DNA from: Escherichia phage T4
Sequence record: NC_000866.4
DNA length: 64,000 nt
Strand: one strand, 5' to 3'
The notes beneath the pieces were generated by a model. It saw nothing but the letters and a program-made list of their open reading frames with translations. It was not told the DNA's origin and searched no databases. Of this stretch, positions 15,612-23,561 are shown piece by piece (position 1 is the first letter of the stretch; each line of letters begins with the position of its first letter). The translations under genes were made by a program, and so were the position numbers.

Positions 15612-16295
15612 ATCTTCTTTTCTGAATAAGTAAATTAAATTCTTAAGAGCCGAACTTGTTACATCATATTTTCCTTTAAGCGCCTTTACAACCGGGCCTG
15701 TTGCTGGTTTACCTAAAGAAACCCATAACTCGTGTATTTCGCTTTTAAGTGGTTCATGCCAATGCGGTGCTTTTCTTTGCGCCCTTGAAGTTCCTTCTGA
15801 AATCTTTTTATTTCCGCCATTCGAATAAAACTTTTTCATTACTTCAGATTGCCGAGCTTTTCTTTCTGCCCTATTTTGGGCTATACGTTGTGAATTCTTC
15901 ATCCGAGTTTTTGTTTCAGGATTGTTTAATCTAAGTTTATGTTCTAATCGTTGTTGCTCAGTCCATTTTCTTCCTTCTCCACCCTGACCACCAGGAGAAA
16001 TATTAATGCAAGTATCTGGGTGTTTACGTTTTAATGCAGATATTAGCTCACGTTCAACTTCATATGATTTTTCTCTAGAACCATGGCATTTTGACCATCG
16101 TATTTTATAATTAAATCCATACTTACGATATATGTTCCATAGTATTTTACCTGAACCCGGATATTTATCATTATATGGATTTACAATAAATGATTCATGT
16201 TTCCCAGCGTACCAAAAGACGCCTTTCGGCGTCCTAACTTTTACTATATATGTTCTATAAAATTTTTGTTTAATATCCATTATCTTGACGTTCAA
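15606..16295 (-). CDS. segF: GIY-YIG-type homing endonuclease SegF
   Basis: 229-aa ORF with an N-terminal GIY-YIG-like region (YIVKV...YAGKH); sits between 56 and soc. Confidence 0.75.
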   Translation of the reverse strand: MNVKIMDIKQKFYRTYIVKVRTPKGVFWYAGKHESFIVNPYNDKYPGSGKILWNIYRKYGFNYKIRWSKCHGSREKSYEVERELISALKRKHPDTCINISPGGQGGEGRKWTEQQRLEHKLRLNNPETKTRMKNSQRIAQNRAERKARQSEVMKKFYSNGGNKKISEGTSRAQRKAPHWHEPLKSEIHELWVSLGKPATGPVVKALKGKYDVTSSALKNLIYLFRKEDV

Positions 16296-16845: not shown

Positions 16846-17634
<789 letters not shown>

Positions 17635-17737
17635 TCATTTATTGCAGCAAAAATGAATTATACAATTCTTCATCATATGTATTTGATAGTAATACTAACA
17701 CGTTTTGCGATAAATATTAATTTAAAGGAGGATATAT

Positions 17738-17938
17738 ATGGTACAAAAATTAATGGCACTTGTTAATGCCATAAAAGGTAATAAGAAACGTATAGCTTTT
17801 ACTATTTCTACTATGGTAGGAATTTTACTCTGGAACTTTATTTTATCACCTGTTGCAATTGCACATGGTGTTAATATTCCAGTAGTTACTCTTGATACAT
17901 TCGTAGATTTAGCATTTGCTTTAGTTGGGTTAATTTAA
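17738..17938 (+). CDS. hypothetical small hydrophobic protein, 66 aa, opposite strand to all neighbours
   Basis: ORF-track plus-strand ORF in a 309-nt intergenic gap; strong SD (AAAGGAGG) 6-8 nt before the ATG; late-promoter-like GATAAATA about 20 nt upstream; two hydrophobic segments. Confidence 0.45.
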   Translation: MVQKLMALVNAIKGNKKRIAFTISTMVGILLWNFILSPVAIAHGVNIPVVTLDTFVDLAFALVGLI

Positions 17939-18963
17939 ATCTTAGCATATTTAGATAGCCGCATTTTAGCCATTAACCCCTGGGCAATATTATTTTTCAT
18001 ATATTCCATAATTTGTTCAGGGGTTGCACCTTCCTTTCTAATCATATCATTAACATCTTTTGATTTCCAGGGAGATTTATCCCAAAACATAACCCTTTCT
18101 CCTGCATCAACTAATTTAGTCATTCGTTTAATAGTGTCAGGGTGACGAGGTTCATTATCTAAGACCCACACACGTCTATCTTTAAATGGAACAACTTCTA
18201 GGTCTAATTGACCGCCCGTAATAGCTATACCATTTTCAATAAAAAGTGAATCTATAGGTCCTTCTAGAACATATACATCACCATCTTTAACTCGTTCGAC
18301 TCCATAGATTTTTGTTGCCTCAGGATAAGCTTCGATGGTGATATATTTTTGAGGAGCATCTTTCTTTAATGCACGTCCTTGAAAAGACTCAGCTTTTCCA
18401 TTAGCATTATAAATTGGAATAACAAGACGAGGCTCAGAAATTTCCTTTTTGTATGTTCCCGGTGCTATGCTATTAACTAATTTAGGCCATTCGGTTGTAA
18501 ACCAAAGATATTTCCATTTATCCTTTGGAATACAACGAGCTTTTACGTATTTTATAATTGGATGGTCTTCCGCCAGTTTATCTAATCTAACACATGACGG
18601 AAGAGATTTAATTATTTTCTTCTCGGGTTGTTTAGGAAGTTCTTTAGGTTTTTCTATTGGACGACTTTTACCTTTTTCTTTTCTTATTTCAAAGATATAC
18701 TCACGATATAAATCGGGTTCAAACTCCTTTAAATATATTCCGATTGGTGCATGATAGTTACAGTTATAACAATGAATATTTCCTTCATTATTATCACCAT
18801 AATACCATCCACGGGCTTTATTCTGGTCGGTTTTTGAATCTCCACAAACAGGGCATCTAAACCGTAATTTAAAAGTTGAACTATTATTTACTTGTGTGAA
18901 TTTAGGTAAATGAGCTAATGCACGGTATGCAAACTCATTATCAATCCAAGGTATTGATGACAT
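17935..18963 (-). CDS. 61: DNA primase gp61
   Basis: 342-aa ORF with an N-terminal zinc-ribbon (CPVCG...CYNC) and TOPRIM-like region. Confidence 0.93.
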   Translation of the reverse strand: MSSIPWIDNEFAYRALAHLPKFTQVNNSSTFKLRFRCPVCGDSKTDQNKARGWYYGDNNEGNIHCYNCNYHAPIGIYLKEFEPDLYREYIFEIRKEKGKSRPIEKPKELPKQPEKKIIKSLPSCVRLDKLAEDHPIIKYVKARCIPKDKWKYLWFTTEWPKLVNSIAPGTYKKEISEPRLVIPIYNANGKAESFQGRALKKDAPQKYITIEAYPEATKIYGVERVKDGDVYVLEGPIDSLFIENGIAITGGQLDLEVVPFKDRRVWVLDNEPRHPDTIKRMTKLVDAGERVMFWDKSPWKSKDVNDMIRKEGATPEQIMEYMKNNIAQGLMAKMRLSKYAKI

Positions 18964-18965
18964 TT

Positions 18966-19130
18966 TTACTCTTCTTTTTCTTTAGATTCCTCTTTTTTCT
19001 TTTTAGGAATCTGTTCAGGACCTTTATTTACTACAGCGCCTGATGTTGTTCCAATAGAGATATTTTCAGGATTACCACCTGAATCTCCAGCGACCATATC
19101 TTCTTTGATAAATTCTTTAAATGTTTTCAT
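18966..19130 (-). CDS. hypothetical small acidic/basic protein (about 54 aa)
   Basis: By-eye translation MKTFKEFIKEDMVAGDSGGNPENISIG...KKKKEESKEKEE; stop sits 2 nt before the gene 61 ATG. Confidence 0.4.
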   Translation of the reverse strand: MKTFKEFIKEDMVAGDSGGNPENISIGTTSGAVVNKGPEQIPKKKKEESKEKEE

Positions 19131-19131
19131 A

Positions 19132-19758
19132 TTAACCTCTATTCATAAAAGCATTAAAAATTTGGTCATCAATAGAAACATTTACTTTAGGCTGTTTTTC
19201 AGATGGCAATTCATATCCACATATTACAATTTTATGATCAATATCAAAATACACAGAAGCAATATGATTAATGATATTTTCAGTAAAGTCTAAATCAACA
19301 TCAATATCTTTTTGACCAAAGCCCAAAGGATAAATAATGCGAGTAATTCGATTATCTTTAACAAAGATTCCACCGACATACTCTGTGCTGCGTTTAAAGT
19401 CTACACGCCGACGAAATGAAAAATATTCAGGCTCTTTATGAGCTCGGCTCATAGGACACAACGAATAACTAGAATAAGAGATGTCAAATCCTACGCCTTC
19501 AATATGAACTAAATTGTCATGATTAAACCAATTATAATCATATGCCAAGTCCATTAGATTGTCATATGTGAAAAGCACCGGATTAACATCATTGGTCACA
19601 AGCATATAATTAGCAACTGCTATAATTTCATTATTTTTAACGAATACAAACCGTGATTGATGCGAATGGCCTGGACCTGCGTTTTCACGATTAATGATAT
19701 AACACTGGGCACCTTTATATTTGTACGTGTCTTTACACTTGTGCATTTGATAAAGCAT
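19132..19758 (-). CDS. hypothetical protein at the 61.2 position (possibly the anti-DarT factor AdfA)
   Basis: 208-aa ORF; assignment by synteny and from memory only. Confidence 0.55.
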   Translation of the reverse strand: MLYQMHKCKDTYKYKGAQCYIINRENAGPGHSHQSRFVFVKNNEIIAVANYMLVTNDVNPVLFTYDNLMDLAYDYNWFNHDNLVHIEGVGFDISYSSYSLCPMSRAHKEPEYFSFRRRVDFKRSTEYVGGIFVKDNRITRIIYPLGFGQKDIDVDLDFTENIINHIASVYFDIDHKIVICGYELPSEKQPKVNVSIDDQIFNAFMNRG

Positions 19759-20051
19759 TATTCACCTACCACTTCAGCGATGATATTTTTGTTATTAAAG
19801 TTTTTATCGCAATACAGAACATAATTATACTGCATTACACCACCAGACTTAAGCTGTTTTTGCACTTCAGCTTTCATTTCAGGACGATCACGCTTAACGA
19901 TATTCATAATATCTGCTTCAATTTGAGTTTCAACCTCAGTCTGATCCGCAGTCATAGACCATTCGCACAAATCTTTATCATAACCTGCCATAGCAGGCTG
20001 AGCAGCACAAGAAGCTAAAGCAAAAATTGTAGCAAAGATGAATTTTTTCAT
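19758..20051 (-). CDS. predicted lipoprotein
   Basis: 97-aa ORF with signal peptide and lipobox (MKKFIFATIFALASCAAQ...). Confidence 0.65.
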   Translation of the reverse strand: MKKFIFATIFALASCAAQPAMAGYDKDLCEWSMTADQTEVETQIEADIMNIVKRDRPEMKAEVQKQLKSGGVMQYNYVLYCDKNFNNKNIIAEVVGE

Positions 20052-20111
20052 GATAATCTCCTCAGTAGTTTATGTTTATATAGTATCTCAATTTCCAACA
20101 AAAGTAAACAG

Positions 20112-20411
20112 TTATTTTAAAATTTCTGCGTAATCACATGTTACAAACTGTTTCTCTAACTTGACGATTTTACGAAAGTATCTTTTGCATTGGCGAATCT
20201 GCCTCTTCGTAGGGCGAACAGCAAACTTAATAAATTCCACTCGACCAAATGGAGGGCTTTCTTCTGCTGGAATATCTAACACCAATTCCCACGTATCTGC
20301 AATAAGTGCTTTGAATTGCGTATTTTTCCTGACGTTATACGGAGTAGGTTTAAATAAAACAATATGCATATTATCCTCGGCAATCCACTTCACATACTTT
20401 CTTGTCATCAA
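20112..20411 (-). CDS. small basic protein at the 61.4 position (possibly TifA)
   Basis: 99-aa ORF with a basic C-terminal region (KRQIRQCKRYFRKIVKLEKQ); assignment from memory. Confidence 0.55.
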   Translation of the reverse strand: MMTRKYVKWIAEDNMHIVLFKPTPYNVRKNTQFKALIADTWELVLDIPAEESPPFGRVEFIKFAVRPTKRQIRQCKRYFRKIVKLEKQFVTCDYAEILK

Positions 20412-20553
20412 TGAAAGCTTTAACTAATGCTTTATTAACTTCAGCATATTGAGTAGTAGCCCATTGAACGTCATCTTTCATCATTGTGATTTCTTTAGTA
20501 AACATGCTTTCATTCTTAAACCACCCCATAAAAACTACCTTTACCAATTCCAT
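20371..20553 (-). CDS. dmd: Dmd, antitoxin against RnlA/LsoA
   Basis: 60-aa ORF MELVKVVFMGWFKNESMFTKEITMMKDD... matches Dmd. Confidence 0.88.
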   Translation of the reverse strand: MELVKVVFMGWFKNESMFTKEITMMKDDVQWATTQYAEVNKALVKAFIDDKKVCEVDCRG

Positions 20554-20582
20554 AACAATCTCCTCATTTAACCGACAAGACT

Positions 20583-20611
20583 ACTATACCATAGTCTTGT
20601 CAGCTTGTAAA
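20583..20611 (-). promoter_or_regulatory. early sigma70-type promoter upstream of dmd
   Basis: Minus strand GTTTACaagctgacaagactatggTATAGT within a 13-bp inverted repeat. Confidence 0.55.
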
Positions 20612-22039
20612 CTAAAATTTTAATTCATTCGCCAAAGCATCTAACTGAGCTCGAGTCGATTCATTTCTTTGATAGCGATTCTGCTCAGCCTGAATCTGTT
20701 GTGAACCTGCTACTTCGTTCACTTCAGTTGGAGTAGAATCTTGTTCAATTTCTACCCATTTTTGATTTCCTTTTTGAACACCCATCAAAAACTTATTCCA
20801 CTTATTCTTATCACCATATCGTGATTTGATTTGCTTAATGAGTTGTTGTTCAGCAGCTGCTAGCTCCTCGGTTTCAATGACCGCAAGCATAAAATCGGCT
20901 GTTGCTGGAAGACCGGCAGATTCTGCAATATCGCTCATGTTAACATCGGAAGAGTCCCAAGCTTGTTTACCAACCTGTGCTGCAGTCCAAAGAACAGTTT
21001 CGGTTTCAACAGCCAGAGCACGTAATTCCTCTGCAATAGCTTTAACAGTTGTGTAACTATTTTCTGAATAAACTCTAATGCGGCAAGATTTACAAATACC
21101 TAGATAGTCGACAATAATGATTGTTGGAACAAAATTCTTCTTGAGCTTCAATTCGTTTAAAAGTGATCGAAATGTATTAGCGTCTGCTCCACCAGTAGGA
21201 TACTGTTTAACGATTAAACGACCAAGAGTAGATTTCTCACGCCATTTTTCCATTTTTCCTTTATACTCAGCGTAAGAAATATGCCCATCATCAATGTCAT
21301 CAAGAGAAACATCAAGCATATTAGCGTCAATACGTTTAGCACAGACTTCTTCTGCCATTTCCATGGAAATGTAAAGAACATTATGTCCGAGCTGTAAATA
21401 ATCTGCCGCTAATGAACACAATCCTAATGATTTACCAACGTTAACGCCAGCCATTAAAACGTTCAGTGTTCCAGTTTCAGCTCCGCCTTTCGTAATTTTG
21501 TTCAGAATTCTGAGTTTAAATGGAACCTTACGAGCTTTATTCATATAAGATAGCCAACGTGCTTCGTAGTCATCCATCCAATCATGACCAACGTAACTAT
21601 CAAATGAAATTGATAATGCCTGGCGCATGATGTCAGGAATAGCACCAACATCCGGCATTTTCTTATTTCGTTTTTCCGGAGGAAGCTCAGCATTAGTTTG
21701 AATTTCGATTATTTTAGACGTAGCATTAAACATCGCCCTTTGCTGAACATATTTTTCTGTTTCTTTTACTAACCAGCTGTGGTCTTCCGGAGAATCAGCC
21801 AGTTTTGAAATAAGTGTTTTTACACCAGAATATTCTGTTTCAGTAAATGAACTATTTTCTAATGCAACATTTAACGCATTAATAGATGGAACGCTATGGT
21901 ACTCATTAACATGAGATTTAATTAATTTGAATGTATTTTTAGCTGGACCACTTTCAAAATATTCTGAATCCATATATGGCCAAACTTTTGAAAAATAAGC
22001 TTGATCAAATATGAGATGAGAAAGAATAATTTCTACCAC
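20612..22039 (-). CDS. 41: replicative DNA helicase gp41 (DnaB-like)
   Basis: 475-aa ORF, Walker A GVNVGKS. Confidence 0.94.
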   Translation of the reverse strand: MVEIILSHLIFDQAYFSKVWPYMDSEYFESGPAKNTFKLIKSHVNEYHSVPSINALNVALENSSFTETEYSGVKTLISKLADSPEDHSWLVKETEKYVQQRAMFNATSKIIEIQTNAELPPEKRNKKMPDVGAIPDIMRQALSISFDSYVGHDWMDDYEARWLSYMNKARKVPFKLRILNKITKGGAETGTLNVLMAGVNVGKSLGLCSLAADYLQLGHNVLYISMEMAEEVCAKRIDANMLDVSLDDIDDGHISYAEYKGKMEKWREKSTLGRLIVKQYPTGGADANTFRSLLNELKLKKNFVPTIIIVDYLGICKSCRIRVYSENSYTTVKAIAEELRALAVETETVLWTAAQVGKQAWDSSDVNMSDIAESAGLPATADFMLAVIETEELAAAEQQLIKQIKSRYGDKNKWNKFLMGVQKGNQKWVEIEQDSTPTEVNEVAGSQQIQAEQNRYQRNESTRAQLDALANELKF

Positions 22040-22048
22040 ACTTACTCC

Positions 22049-22411
22049 TTAAAAGAATTTAAATTTTTTCTTTGACCTTTTATTAAATGCATCTTGCAGT
22101 TGCATTGTAATACATTTTTCTACATGAGGAGCTAACTCAGCTTTTCTTTCTTGGTCAAGAACAGCAAAGTCCATTACAACCTTTCCATCAACCCAATCCA
22201 GTTTAGTTACATACACTATATGCGTAGAACCATCTTCTAGTTTAATGACAATCTCCTGGATAACATTTTCCATAGCAGATTTAATTATCTTAAGAGACTC
22301 ATTAAAAAGACGTTCTTTTCTTTCTTCTTCCCCCTCCGAAGAGGGGGATTCATCGATAATTTCTAGATCTAAATCTAAATCATCTTTATTCATTAAATTC
22401 TTCCATATCAC
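22049..22411 (-). CDS. 40: gp40-like protein
   Basis: 120-aa ORF between 41 and uvsX; synteny. Confidence 0.65.
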   Translation of the reverse strand: MIWKNLMNKDDLDLDLEIIDESPSSEGEEERKERLFNESLKIIKSAMENVIQEIVIKLEDGSTHIVYVTKLDWVDGKVVMDFAVLDQERKAELAPHVEKCITMQLQDAFNKRSKKKFKFF

Positions 22412-23561
22412 TTAGCTGTTCGAGGTCAGTTTCTAAATCAGCAGCTGATTTACTTTTACTTTCTGGAGATTTAAATTTTTCAACCTTTGAGTTAATCAAT
22501 TCATCAACTTCAGCTTCAACAATTTCATTACTATCAATAGCACCTAACTGATAAGCACGTTTAATAGCATCTCGGAATGGTTGATGCTTAAATAAAGGAC
22601 CCCAGAATGTAGTGCAGTTGGTATCTTTTGCACGCCAAGATTTTTCTTCGCGAATCATCTCGCCAGTTTCTTCGTCAAGAAATTCACGAGCATACCAGCC
22701 ATTTTTAGGTTTTACCACGAATCCTAATTCTAGAGCCATATCTAACAATCCAGAATAAGGATCGATACCACCGTCAAATTTAACATCAATAAAGAATTTA
22801 CTTTTTTCTTTAACGGTACGAGATTTTTCTACATTTAGAACAAATTGATACCCCTGAAGATCAGAACCATCTTTAATCTGGCGTTTACCGATAATGAATA
22901 CGGTATCAGCCGAATACATCGGTCCAGTACCACCTCCCATAACTGTTTTACTAAACATTTCTTGTGTTTCGTATGTATGGTTAATAGCAATACATGGAAT
23001 ATTTTTAGTACTAAAATAGGGAGTTACGATACGAAATAAGCTTTTCATTGTTTTAGCTCTAGTCATATCACTAACAACTTTTTCATTTAAAGCATCTTCA
23101 GTTTCTTTCTTAGAAGCTAAGTTACCAAGTGAATCGATAAAAACGACTACCTTTTCGCCGCGTTCAATTGCATCCAATTGATTAACCATGTCAATACGTA
23201 ATTGCTCAAGTGATTGAACCGGAGTATGAATTACTCGTTCTGGATCGACTCCCATAGACCGCAAATAAGCAGGAGTAATACCAAATTCACTATCATAAAA
23301 CAAACATACTGCATCAGGATATTGACGCATGTAAGATGACACCATTGTTAATCCAAAGTTTGATTTAAATGATTTTGATGGACCTGCCAAAATTAACAGA
23401 CCAGATTGCATACCACCAGTAATTTCACCAGAAAGTGCAATATTCATCATAGGAATTTTTGTTCGAACTACATCTTTTTCATTAAAGAATTTAGATGCTG
23501 TTAATTCTGCAGTCAATTTAGAAGTAGAAGCTTTAATCAAACGAGATTTTAAATCAGACAT
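22386..23561 (-). CDS. uvsX: UvsX recombinase (RecA-like)
   Basis: 391-aa ORF, Walker A GPSKSFKS. Confidence 0.94.
   Translation of the reverse strand: MSDLKSRLIKASTSKLTAELTASKFFNEKDVVRTKIPMMNIALSGEITGGMQSGLLILAGPSKSFKSNFGLTMVSSYMRQYPDAVCLFYDSEFGITPAYLRSMGVDPERVIHTPVQSLEQLRIDMVNQLDAIERGEKVVVFIDSLGNLASKKETEDALNEKVVSDMTRAKTMKSLFRIVTPYFSTKNIPCIAINHTYETQEMFSKTVMGGGTGPMYSADTVFIIGKRQIKDGSDLQGYQFVLNVEKSRTVKEKSKFFIDVKFDGGIDPYSGLLDMALELGFVVKPKNGWYAREFLDEETGEMIREEKSWRAKDTNCTTFWGPLFKHQPFRDAIKRAYQLGAIDSNEIVEAEVDELINSKVEKFKSPESKSKSAADLETDLEQLSDMEEFNE

Follow-up and report, generated by a model that had tools for sequence, protein, structure and literature searches.

Five tightly packed open reading frames (ORFs) fill exactly positions 18966-20553, on the minus strand, of the DNA analysed here, a window of 64,000 nucleotides from Escherichia phage T4 (record NC_000866.4), and lie between the gene for the replicative helicase (gene 41) and that for the primase (gene 61). 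The question raised by this locus is whether its genes, dmd, 61.4, 61.3, 61.2, and 61.1, constitute a counter-defence island, as an earlier note made from the sequence alone had proposed, with the products of 97 and 54 amino acids as candidate inhibitors of further host defences. The explanation that best covers the whole, and that is considered likely, is a variable accessory region between genes 41 and 61, which is transcribed early from the minus strand, carries a mixed cargo and includes in gp61.1 a protein that may be linked to the phage head. The cargo is mixed in that three anti-toxin genes are accompanied by one superinfection-exclusion gene (sp), and gp61.1 is the sole uncharacterised protein among the five. 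As a finding, the locus is already known, and gp61.1 is the one new testable lead that it offers.

The DNA of the locus showed 100% identity to T4 record K03113 and 99.9% identity to complete T4 genomes, where the matching genes are annotated as 61.1, 61.2, sp, 61.4, and dmd. The coordinates of the five genes are those given in a published T4 omics table, which means that position 1 of the window is also position 1 of the T4 reference; in the table, the RNAs of all five are classed as early, and early proteins were detected for four of the five (gp61.2, Sp, gp61.4, and Dmd) in a T4 infection proteome table. The five ORFs are real genes and not chance ORFs, and the identity of the locus, together with the four published functions, is secure on the strength of these sequence matches.

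The gp61.1 family beside the primase gene

Gene 61.1 (18966-19130, minus strand) encodes 54 amino acids and is annotated under this name in T4T. It sits between 61.2 and the primase gene 61 (17935-18963, minus strand), which forms a conserved flank of the variable region, and not between 61.4 and 61.2, where the earlier note had placed the peptide. The protein was assigned to PHROG 1823 at 3e-33 and also matched the C-terminus of the 156-residue phrog_2086, and tblastn found it in 1486 phage records, including phages of Escherichia, Klebsiella, Aeromonas, Acinetobacter, Vibrio, Shewanella, and others. No family was found for it in Pfam, NCBIfam, or PDB, the PDB matches being gp23 chains only; in the literature, mentions of gp61.1 were found in gene lists only, with no defence phenotype reported. 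Distant relatives of 135-166 residues are encoded immediately upstream of the primase gene in Acinetobacter phage Meroveus, Aeromonas phage CC2, Vibrio phage CZ01, RB43, a Mosigvirus, and Citrobacter phage Moon (long-form genes at L012:3698-4165, L007:2686-3186, and L004:2665-3141), and gene 61 adjoins 61.1 in every related phage compared. By these comparisons, gp61.1 is a truncated T-even form of a Straboviridae-wide family, always encoded directly upstream of the primase gene.

Long and short forms of the family have in common a C-terminal module, E-[DE]-M-V-A-G-D-x-G-G-x-x-x-I-A-x-G-x-T-x-G-A-x-x-N-x-G-P, which is followed by a Lys/Arg patch. In T4, Dhakavirus, and Jiaodavirus, this module stands alone behind a new short N-terminus. 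The N-domain of the long form, about 100 residues in length, has been lost from T4, where its best match among 2447 six-frame ORFs reached an E value of 0.96; the same search rules out that the domain was split off by insertion of the island. The ORFs upstream of the short forms in JS10 (63 amino acids) and Shinkou (69 amino acids) were considered as the missing N-domain and are not homologous to it, that of JS10 being a homologue of a 65-residue gene which also precedes the Mosigvirus long form. In an AF2 model of the long form, the N-domain is confidently helical and the module is predicted to be disordered, and no fold match or Pfam family was found for the N-domain. A whole-family profile, used in an exhaustive search, returned 1941 clusters (50% identity). 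The majority of the weaker hits listed match the N-domain only and carry various other C-termini (up to 470 amino acids). In four metagenomic contigs with three distinct relatives (L015-L018), a DUF7207 gene precedes the N-domain gene, directly or one small ORF upstream, and a gene for a DnaB-like helicase, RNase H, or ribonucleotide reductase lies nearby.

The loss of the N-domain with no trace in the T4 genome, together with the failure of proteomics to detect gp61.1, could indicate that the 54-residue form of T4 is a decaying, functionless remnant of the long gene, left behind by a nearby insertion or deletion of the island. Such decay is barely credible, however, for a short form that is intact, has a strong GAGG ribosome-binding site and retains 93-95% identity among close T4 relatives and 57-78% identity to those of Dhakavirus, Jiaodavirus, and other short forms, its module being free of frameshifts. 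The short forms also have a specific N-terminus in common, and not the random sequence of a degenerating gene.

The patchy, lineage-specific presence expected of anti-defence cargo was not observed for gp61.1. Because the gene keeps its fixed place beside gene 61 across genera while the neighbouring cargo varies, gp61.1 is not regarded as cargo. The true island is made up of the cargo genes that vary between gene 41 and 61.1, and 61.1 belongs to the conserved flank.

Resemblance to gp23 and to capsid targeting sequences

According to profile and pairwise alignments, the module of gp61.1 (18993-19103, minus strand; codons 10-46) is homologous to residues 65-101 of the capsid protein gp23. A phmmer search against PDB aligned residues 3-39 of gp61.1 with gp23 58-94 (E 0.0067), and a module profile built from 25 homologues matched gp23 65-101 with an E value of 1.7e-10, beginning exactly at Glu65, while the runner-up among the 2447 six-frame T4 ORFs reached 1.7. 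The ungapped alignment of gp61.1 and gp23 contains 17 identities in 44 positions, all of them in the first 37. The corresponding segment of gp23 extends from the P1 glutamate of the maturation site through the N-fist (25 residues) into the beginning of the N-arm. The N-fist has been described as disordered in the prohead and located on the outer surface after expansion, where it contacts four subunits and helps to form the Soc site (PMC9958956). Both long and short forms keep a glutamate ahead of the module (conservation of 90% or more), and three residues before it stands L, I, M, or V, an arrangement that fits the L/I-x-E specificity of the protease gp21 (PMC9026906). Shell domains of the HK97 fold were not found in gp61.1, which has 54 residues in total, nor in the long form, whose N-domain is unrelated and helical. 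The names under which family members appear in databases, such as 'major capsid protein', 'major capsid domain-containing', and 'gp23-like', are misleading because this fold is absent.

Ahead of the module, the decapeptide MKTFKEFIKE (19101-19130, minus strand; codons 1-10) ends in an I-x-E motif, with a predicted cut after Glu10. Judged by its residues, this N-terminus of the T-even gp61.1 looks like a bona fide capsid targeting sequence (CTS), the element of T4 internal head proteins reportedly treated by Mullaney and Black in 1996. The internal protein IPI starts with MKTFKEF, and IPII and IPIII start with MKTYQEFIAE. Across the complete T4 genome, translated in six frames, the pattern MKT[FY].EF was found in ipI, ipII, ipIII, and 61.1 only; at ATG starts, the more general pattern M..h.Eh[LIVM].E (h standing for F, Y, W, I, L, M, or V) matched gp61.1, IPII, IPIII, and gp24 only, with a mean of 0.1 in shuffled genomes. 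Residues 4 and 7 of the CTS act in targeting and residues 8 and 10 in processing, gp21 cuts after L/I-x-E, and the first ten residues suffice for the packaging of foreign proteins (PMC9026906). All four of these key residues are kept in gp61.1 (F4, F7, I8, and E10). The ip loci of JS10 contain four CTS-bearing ORFs, which start with MKTYQEFIKE, MKTYQEFITE, MKTYNEFIAE, and MKTYKEFITE, and the T-even 61.1 N-termini MKTYKEFIKE and MKTYKEFVTE lie one or two substitutions from these JS10 sequences. The 21 nucleotides coding for MKTFKEF are identical in ipI and 61.1, an identity that was judged uninformative about recombination, given the codon bias of T4.

The four CTS positions (4, 7, 8, and 10) also align with F59, F62, L63, and E65 of gp23 (codons 59-65, L002:5099-5119) and with I4, L7, L8, and E10 of the gp24 propeptide MAKINELLRE (L002:7302-7331). 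Such collinearity suggests that the internal-protein CTS, the gp24 propeptide, and the pre-cleavage segment of gp23 may be variants of one recognition element. As a separate observation, the gap between trna.4 and 57B in JS10, which is the ipI locus, contains an unannotated ORF of 97 amino acids starting with MKTYQEFIKES (L014, minus strand, start at 15787; about 70.5-70.8 kb of NC_012741). From its N-terminus, this ORF probably encodes a CTS-bearing internal protein that has escaped annotation.

A putative head role weighed against other explanations

The combination of a CTS-like N-terminus with a gp23-like module makes it conceivable, if somewhat short of probable, that residues 1-10 direct gp61.1 to the prohead core and that gp21 cuts the protein after Glu10, with release of a 44-residue peptide. 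In this proposal, gp61.1 would enter the scaffolding core by means of its first ten residues, like IPI-III, and cleavage by the gp21 protease would yield a product of 4.6 kDa (4611.3 Da monoisotopic) with a free copy of the gp23* N-terminus and a lysine-rich tail. The semi-tryptic peptide predicted from the cut protein is DMVAGDSGGNPENISIGTTSGAVVNK, with a mass of 2489.17 Da, and its uncut equivalent, EDMVAGD..., would have 2618.21 Da. The peptide would either be retained in the head and injected or act on gp23 assembly at N-fist or protease sites, and its role would then be in head morphogenesis or delivery and not in the inhibition of host defence. Early expression from a replication locus could be raised as an objection to a head role, and this objection is removed because the RNAs of ipI-III are likewise classed as early and the head-assembly gene 40 sits in the uvsX-40-41 cluster. 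T4 is a reference system for capsid assembly and injected internal proteins, and the list of its gp21 substrates is considered essentially complete. A fourth ORF, in which an intact CTS is joined to a copied segment of gp23 (maturation site with N-fist), suggests an overlooked head component or an overlooked regulator of capsid maturation.

Several observations weigh against a place for gp61.1 in the head. The T4 infection proteome did not include the protein, although its main peptide would become semi-tryptic upon processing; it does not appear in the main text or supplementary text of a mass-spectrometry paper on T4 ejection proteins; and PDB holds no gp61.1 chain despite several T4 capsid structures. 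The window contains just three copies of the late promoter TATAAATA, none of which is near 61.1. The mature protein (residues 11-54) has a calculated isoelectric point (pI) of 5.0 despite its KKKK patch, whereas internal proteins are basic, and the P1' residue at the predicted cut is Asp or Glu, in contrast to the Ala or Ser of known sites. The N-terminus of JS10 61.1, MKSFKEVMNE, lacks Phe7, and the long forms lack F-x-x-F, which means that their targeting to the capsid would need another determinant. The invariant linkage to the primase gene, finally, could point to a role in replication.

Such a role might involve a link with gp61 or gp41, or the T4 ORF might serve mainly for translational coupling or as a ribosome-binding site for gene 61. 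Besides adjoining gene 61 in every phage compared, 61.1 stands alone between 41 and 61 in CC2, and the genes for distant N-domain relatives lie close to those for a DnaB-like helicase, RNase H, and ribonucleotide reductase. In T4, the stop codon of 61.1 lies 2 nucleotides before the ATG of gene 61 (18961-18968, TAA AA ATG) and is preceded by purine-rich tail codons. Elsewhere, however, the gap between 61.1 and 61 measures about 36 to 150 nucleotides, so that coupling cannot explain the conservation of the peptide; translational coupling of the primase to 61.1 is possible as a T4-specific trait and was rejected as a general explanation, since the 2-nucleotide junction is specific to T4. The module is, moreover, homologous to a capsid segment and not to any replication protein, and neither N-domain nor module matched a known DNA-binding or primase-associated fold. 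A replication role is thus considered quite unlikely.

The homology to gp23 65-101, including the cleavage context, would also suit an unpackaged, cytoplasmic regulator of head assembly, which would limit premature or aberrant polymerisation of gp23 by competing for gp21 or by capping N-fist sockets. The RNA of gp61.1 is made early, before gp23 accumulates, the long forms keep the module with no obvious CTS, and other early or middle helpers of head assembly (gp40 and gp31) are encoded among replication genes. Regulation from the cytoplasm gives no reason, however, for the T-even N-terminus to keep all four mapped CTS positions. In addition, N-fists are disordered until expansion and are then found on the outer surface (PMC9958956), which leaves no obvious early binding partner for a free peptide. 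Such a regulator is possible and, on balance, fairly unlikely.

As a neighbour of three proven anti-toxin genes, with which it shares an early transcription unit, 61.1 invites the explanation favoured by the earlier note, in which gp61.1 would be a small early inhibitor of a further host defence, for instance a toxin-antitoxin (TA) system; alternatively, it could be a decoy of the gp23 N-terminus directed against capsid-sensing immunity. The protein is small, charged and predicted to be disordered, like many inhibitors, and Srikant et al. flagged the neighbours of these anti-toxin genes as candidates (PMC9391042). Capsid-sensing host systems do exist, such as Lit/Gol, which acts on gp23, and CapRel (PMC9712102), and gp61.1 copies a segment of gp23. 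Counter-defence genes are, however, usually patchy and fast-evolving, whereas the module is strongly conserved from phages of Escherichia to those of Vibrio, Aeromonas, and Acinetobacter, in a position that remains fixed while the cargo turns over. The Gol core of gp23 begins about where the copied segment 65-101 ends. A decoy role towards Gol/Lit was rejected as unlikely, as the module stops about at the start of that core and lacks the known Lit-activating residues. Inhibition of a host defence by gp61.1 therefore appears improbable. A combined possibility, that gp61.1 is delivered by the head, cut by gp21 and injected as a mimic of the gp23 N-terminus that would pre-empt capsid-sensing immunity, is regarded as very improbable. 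What stands of the original suggestion is that the 54-residue peptide has no assigned role; its rank as a candidate defence inhibitor is lowered by its place in the conserved flank and by features that point to head morphogenesis.

The cargo of the island and comparison with known systems

Between 41 and 61.1, the gene content changes with every genus compared. In Aeromonas phage CC2, the annotated helicase (primase-helicase subunit) is followed by 61.1 and 61 with zero cargo genes, and in Vibrio phage CZ01 the helicase gene lies directly ahead of 61.1 and 61, again with zero cargo. The same interval contains five unrelated ORFs in RB43, three in Moon, four in Jiaodavirus, six in JS10, and eight in Mosigvirus. 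In Mosigvirus RPN187, an Imm-type superinfection immunity gene (PF14373; L012:2222-2470) adjoins sp, and a DUF5481 gene is also present, such that genes for superinfection exclusion gather in the 41-61.1 slot together with anti-toxin genes. The adfA slot of JS10 is occupied by a 146-residue ORF unrelated to AdfA except for an identical C-terminal tail of 14 amino acids, SIDDQIFNAFMNRG (L010:3750-3791 in JS10 and 19132-19173, the 3' end of adfA, in T4), and the C-terminal end of the Mosigvirus AdfA is the closely similar SVDDQIFNAFMNRG. The 3' end of adfA looks like a fixed junction for the swapping of different cassettes. It was also observed that this conserved 3' end includes the ribosome-binding site of the next gene. 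The clean boundary of the island, from gene 41 (20612-22039, minus strand), the other conserved flank, to 61.1, should help in mining the same slot of T4-like phages for counter-defence genes.

In T4, the three anti-toxin genes are dmd, tifA, and adfA. The gene dmd (61.5; 20371-20553, minus strand) encodes a 60-residue antitoxin mimic directed against RnlA and LsoA, which matched Pfam PF17587 over residues 1-60 of 60 (E 1.6e-46) and belongs to PHROG 2102; binding and neutralisation of RnlA and LsoA have been published for this exact Dmd (cited in PMC9391042). Gene 61.4, or tifA (20112-20369, minus strand), encodes an inhibitor of the ToxN endoribonuclease, 85 residues from its ATG, with a match to DUF7279 (E 2.3e-20). 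The gene was renamed when its protein, and not its RNA, was found to bind and inhibit ToxN and to rescue its toxicity (PMC9391042). The ORF of 99 residues that opens with TTG at this site is a mechanical extension overlapping dmd (20370-20411), the annotated and experimentally used start being the ATG at 20369. The product of 61.2, or adfA (19132-19758, minus strand; 208 amino acids), named anti-DarT factor A (AdfA) in PMC9391042 and PMC11257639, matched the Pfam family AdfA, PF23813, with residues 1-208 against profile positions 1-211 (E 1e-135), and this match identifies gp61.2 as the T4 allele of AdfA, an inhibitor that binds DarT. The substitution R164H confers DarT1-neutralising activity on the AdfA of RB69 (PMC11257639), and an alignment to Mosigvirus AdfA places a His of T4 AdfA, within a conserved I-N-H-I-A-S motif, at the equivalent of RB69 R164, with numbering offset by 4 as RB69 uses a later start codon. 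One result counts against the anti-toxin part of the overall explanation, namely that deletion of adfA from T4 produced no DarTG1 phenotype, even in the additional absence of adfN (PMC11257639), so that the activity of the T4 allele is putative.

The names given to these three genes by the earlier note were all confirmed: Dmd by the full-length Pfam match and the identity to T4 dmd, TifA at 61.4 by the DUF7279 match and the renaming in PMC9391042, and AdfA at 61.2 by the PF23813 match over its full length. Its wider idea of a counter-defence island holds in part. The clustering of three anti-toxin genes is real, but sp and 61.1 do not fit, and both the anti-TA clustering and the appeal of the neighbours as anti-toxin candidates had already been proposed (Srikant, Guegler and Laub 2022, eLife, PMC9391042).

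Transcription of dmd and tifA can be related to an early-promoter-like site upstream of them (20583-20611, minus strand), which consists of TTTACA, a spacer of 17 nucleotides, and TATAGT with a TG extension and is the best minus-strand promoter match of the region (10 of 12 positions plus TG). An early T4 promoter upstream of dmd is known to drive dmd-tifA (PMC9391042). The intergenic region between 41 and dmd also contains a perfect hairpin of 14 base pairs (20571-20604, minus strand), which overlaps the spacer and the -10 element of the promoter. Its RNA fold has a free energy (dG) of -23 kcal/mol and a z-score of -4.7, and none of 200 shuffled sequences folded equally well. No U-run follows the hairpin, and for this reason it is not a classical terminator; searches of Rfam families over 17600-22600, the hairpin included, gave no match. 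The hairpin would arise solely in read-through transcripts coming from gene 41.

The remaining cargo gene, 61.3 or sp (19758-20051, minus strand), encodes the 97 amino acids of Spackle, the periplasmic inhibitor of the gp5 tail lysozyme. The protein matched Pfam T4_Spackle (PF25676, E 1.6e-44) and is identical in 97 of 97 residues to PDB 6x6o, with the same chain in 6xc0 and 6xc1 and the mature 75-residue form in 7cn6 and 7cn7. Spackle has a 22-residue signal peptide and inhibits the gp5 lysozyme in the periplasm at a 1:1 ratio, which explains both superinfection exclusion and the control of stray gp5 (PMC7650644, PMC7677548). Its role is in competition between phages and in self-protection, not in the inhibition of host defence. 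The 97-residue ORF had been taken for a lipoprotein with no known role and a candidate inhibitor of host defences; the identity to a characterised protein of known structure and target removes the second and third of these descriptions, and the first retains some basis in the signal peptide.

The codons of this signal peptide span 19986-20051 (minus strand), with cleavage after residue 22. Residues 12-15, L-A-S-C, resemble a lipobox (criterion [LVI][ASTVI][GAS]C), and Cys15 is invariant in all 19 of the homologues compared, with identity down to 26%, while the hydrophobic core is variable. The lipobox-like variants among the homologues are LASC, VASC, VSSC, AVSC, and LSAC, and neither Pro19 nor Ala22 of the A-x-A site varies. 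A lipid-anchored form of Spackle may, by this conservation, exist beside the soluble one. Against the designation as a lipoprotein stands the N-terminal sequencing of overexpressed Spackle released from the periplasm, which showed the removal of 22 residues and a soluble periplasmic protein (PMC7650644). The conserved Cys15 sits inside the signal peptide that is discarded.

Among known systems, the closest to the island as a whole is the anti-TA island of Srikant et al., which is the same locus, with dmd, tifA, and adfA clustered and transcribed early. The present description differs in that comparison across genera limits the island to the cargo between 41 and 61.1, leaving 61.1 as a conserved flank, and in that the cargo also holds superinfection-exclusion genes (sp in T4, sp and an Imm-like gene in a Mosigvirus). 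The likeness to anti-CRISPR and anti-restriction-modification islands of other phages is one of analogy. Within the group of superinfection-exclusion factors represented by Spackle and Imm, the 97-residue ORF is Spackle itself, a secreted and disulfide-bonded protein, and for lipoprotein factors of this kind Llp of phage T5 is the case for comparison.

The comparison of gp61.1 with the internal proteins IPI-III rests on the decapeptide MKT[FY]xEFIxE, with residues 4, 7, 8, and 10 intact, and on the small size and early RNA that they have in common. In contrast to IPI-III, gp61.1 has a gp23-homologous body, is encoded at the primase locus and not at the ip loci, and has long-form orthologues that lack the decapeptide; its predicted P1' residue is Asp, it is mildly acidic and not basic, and its membership of the virion is putative. 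With gp23 itself, the protein is collinear across the maturation site (Glu65/Ala66) and the N-fist (gp23* 66-90), and the F-x-x-F-[LI]-x-E context is common to both, gp61.1 ending in a Lys-rich tail of mixed charge where gp23 continues into the N-arm.

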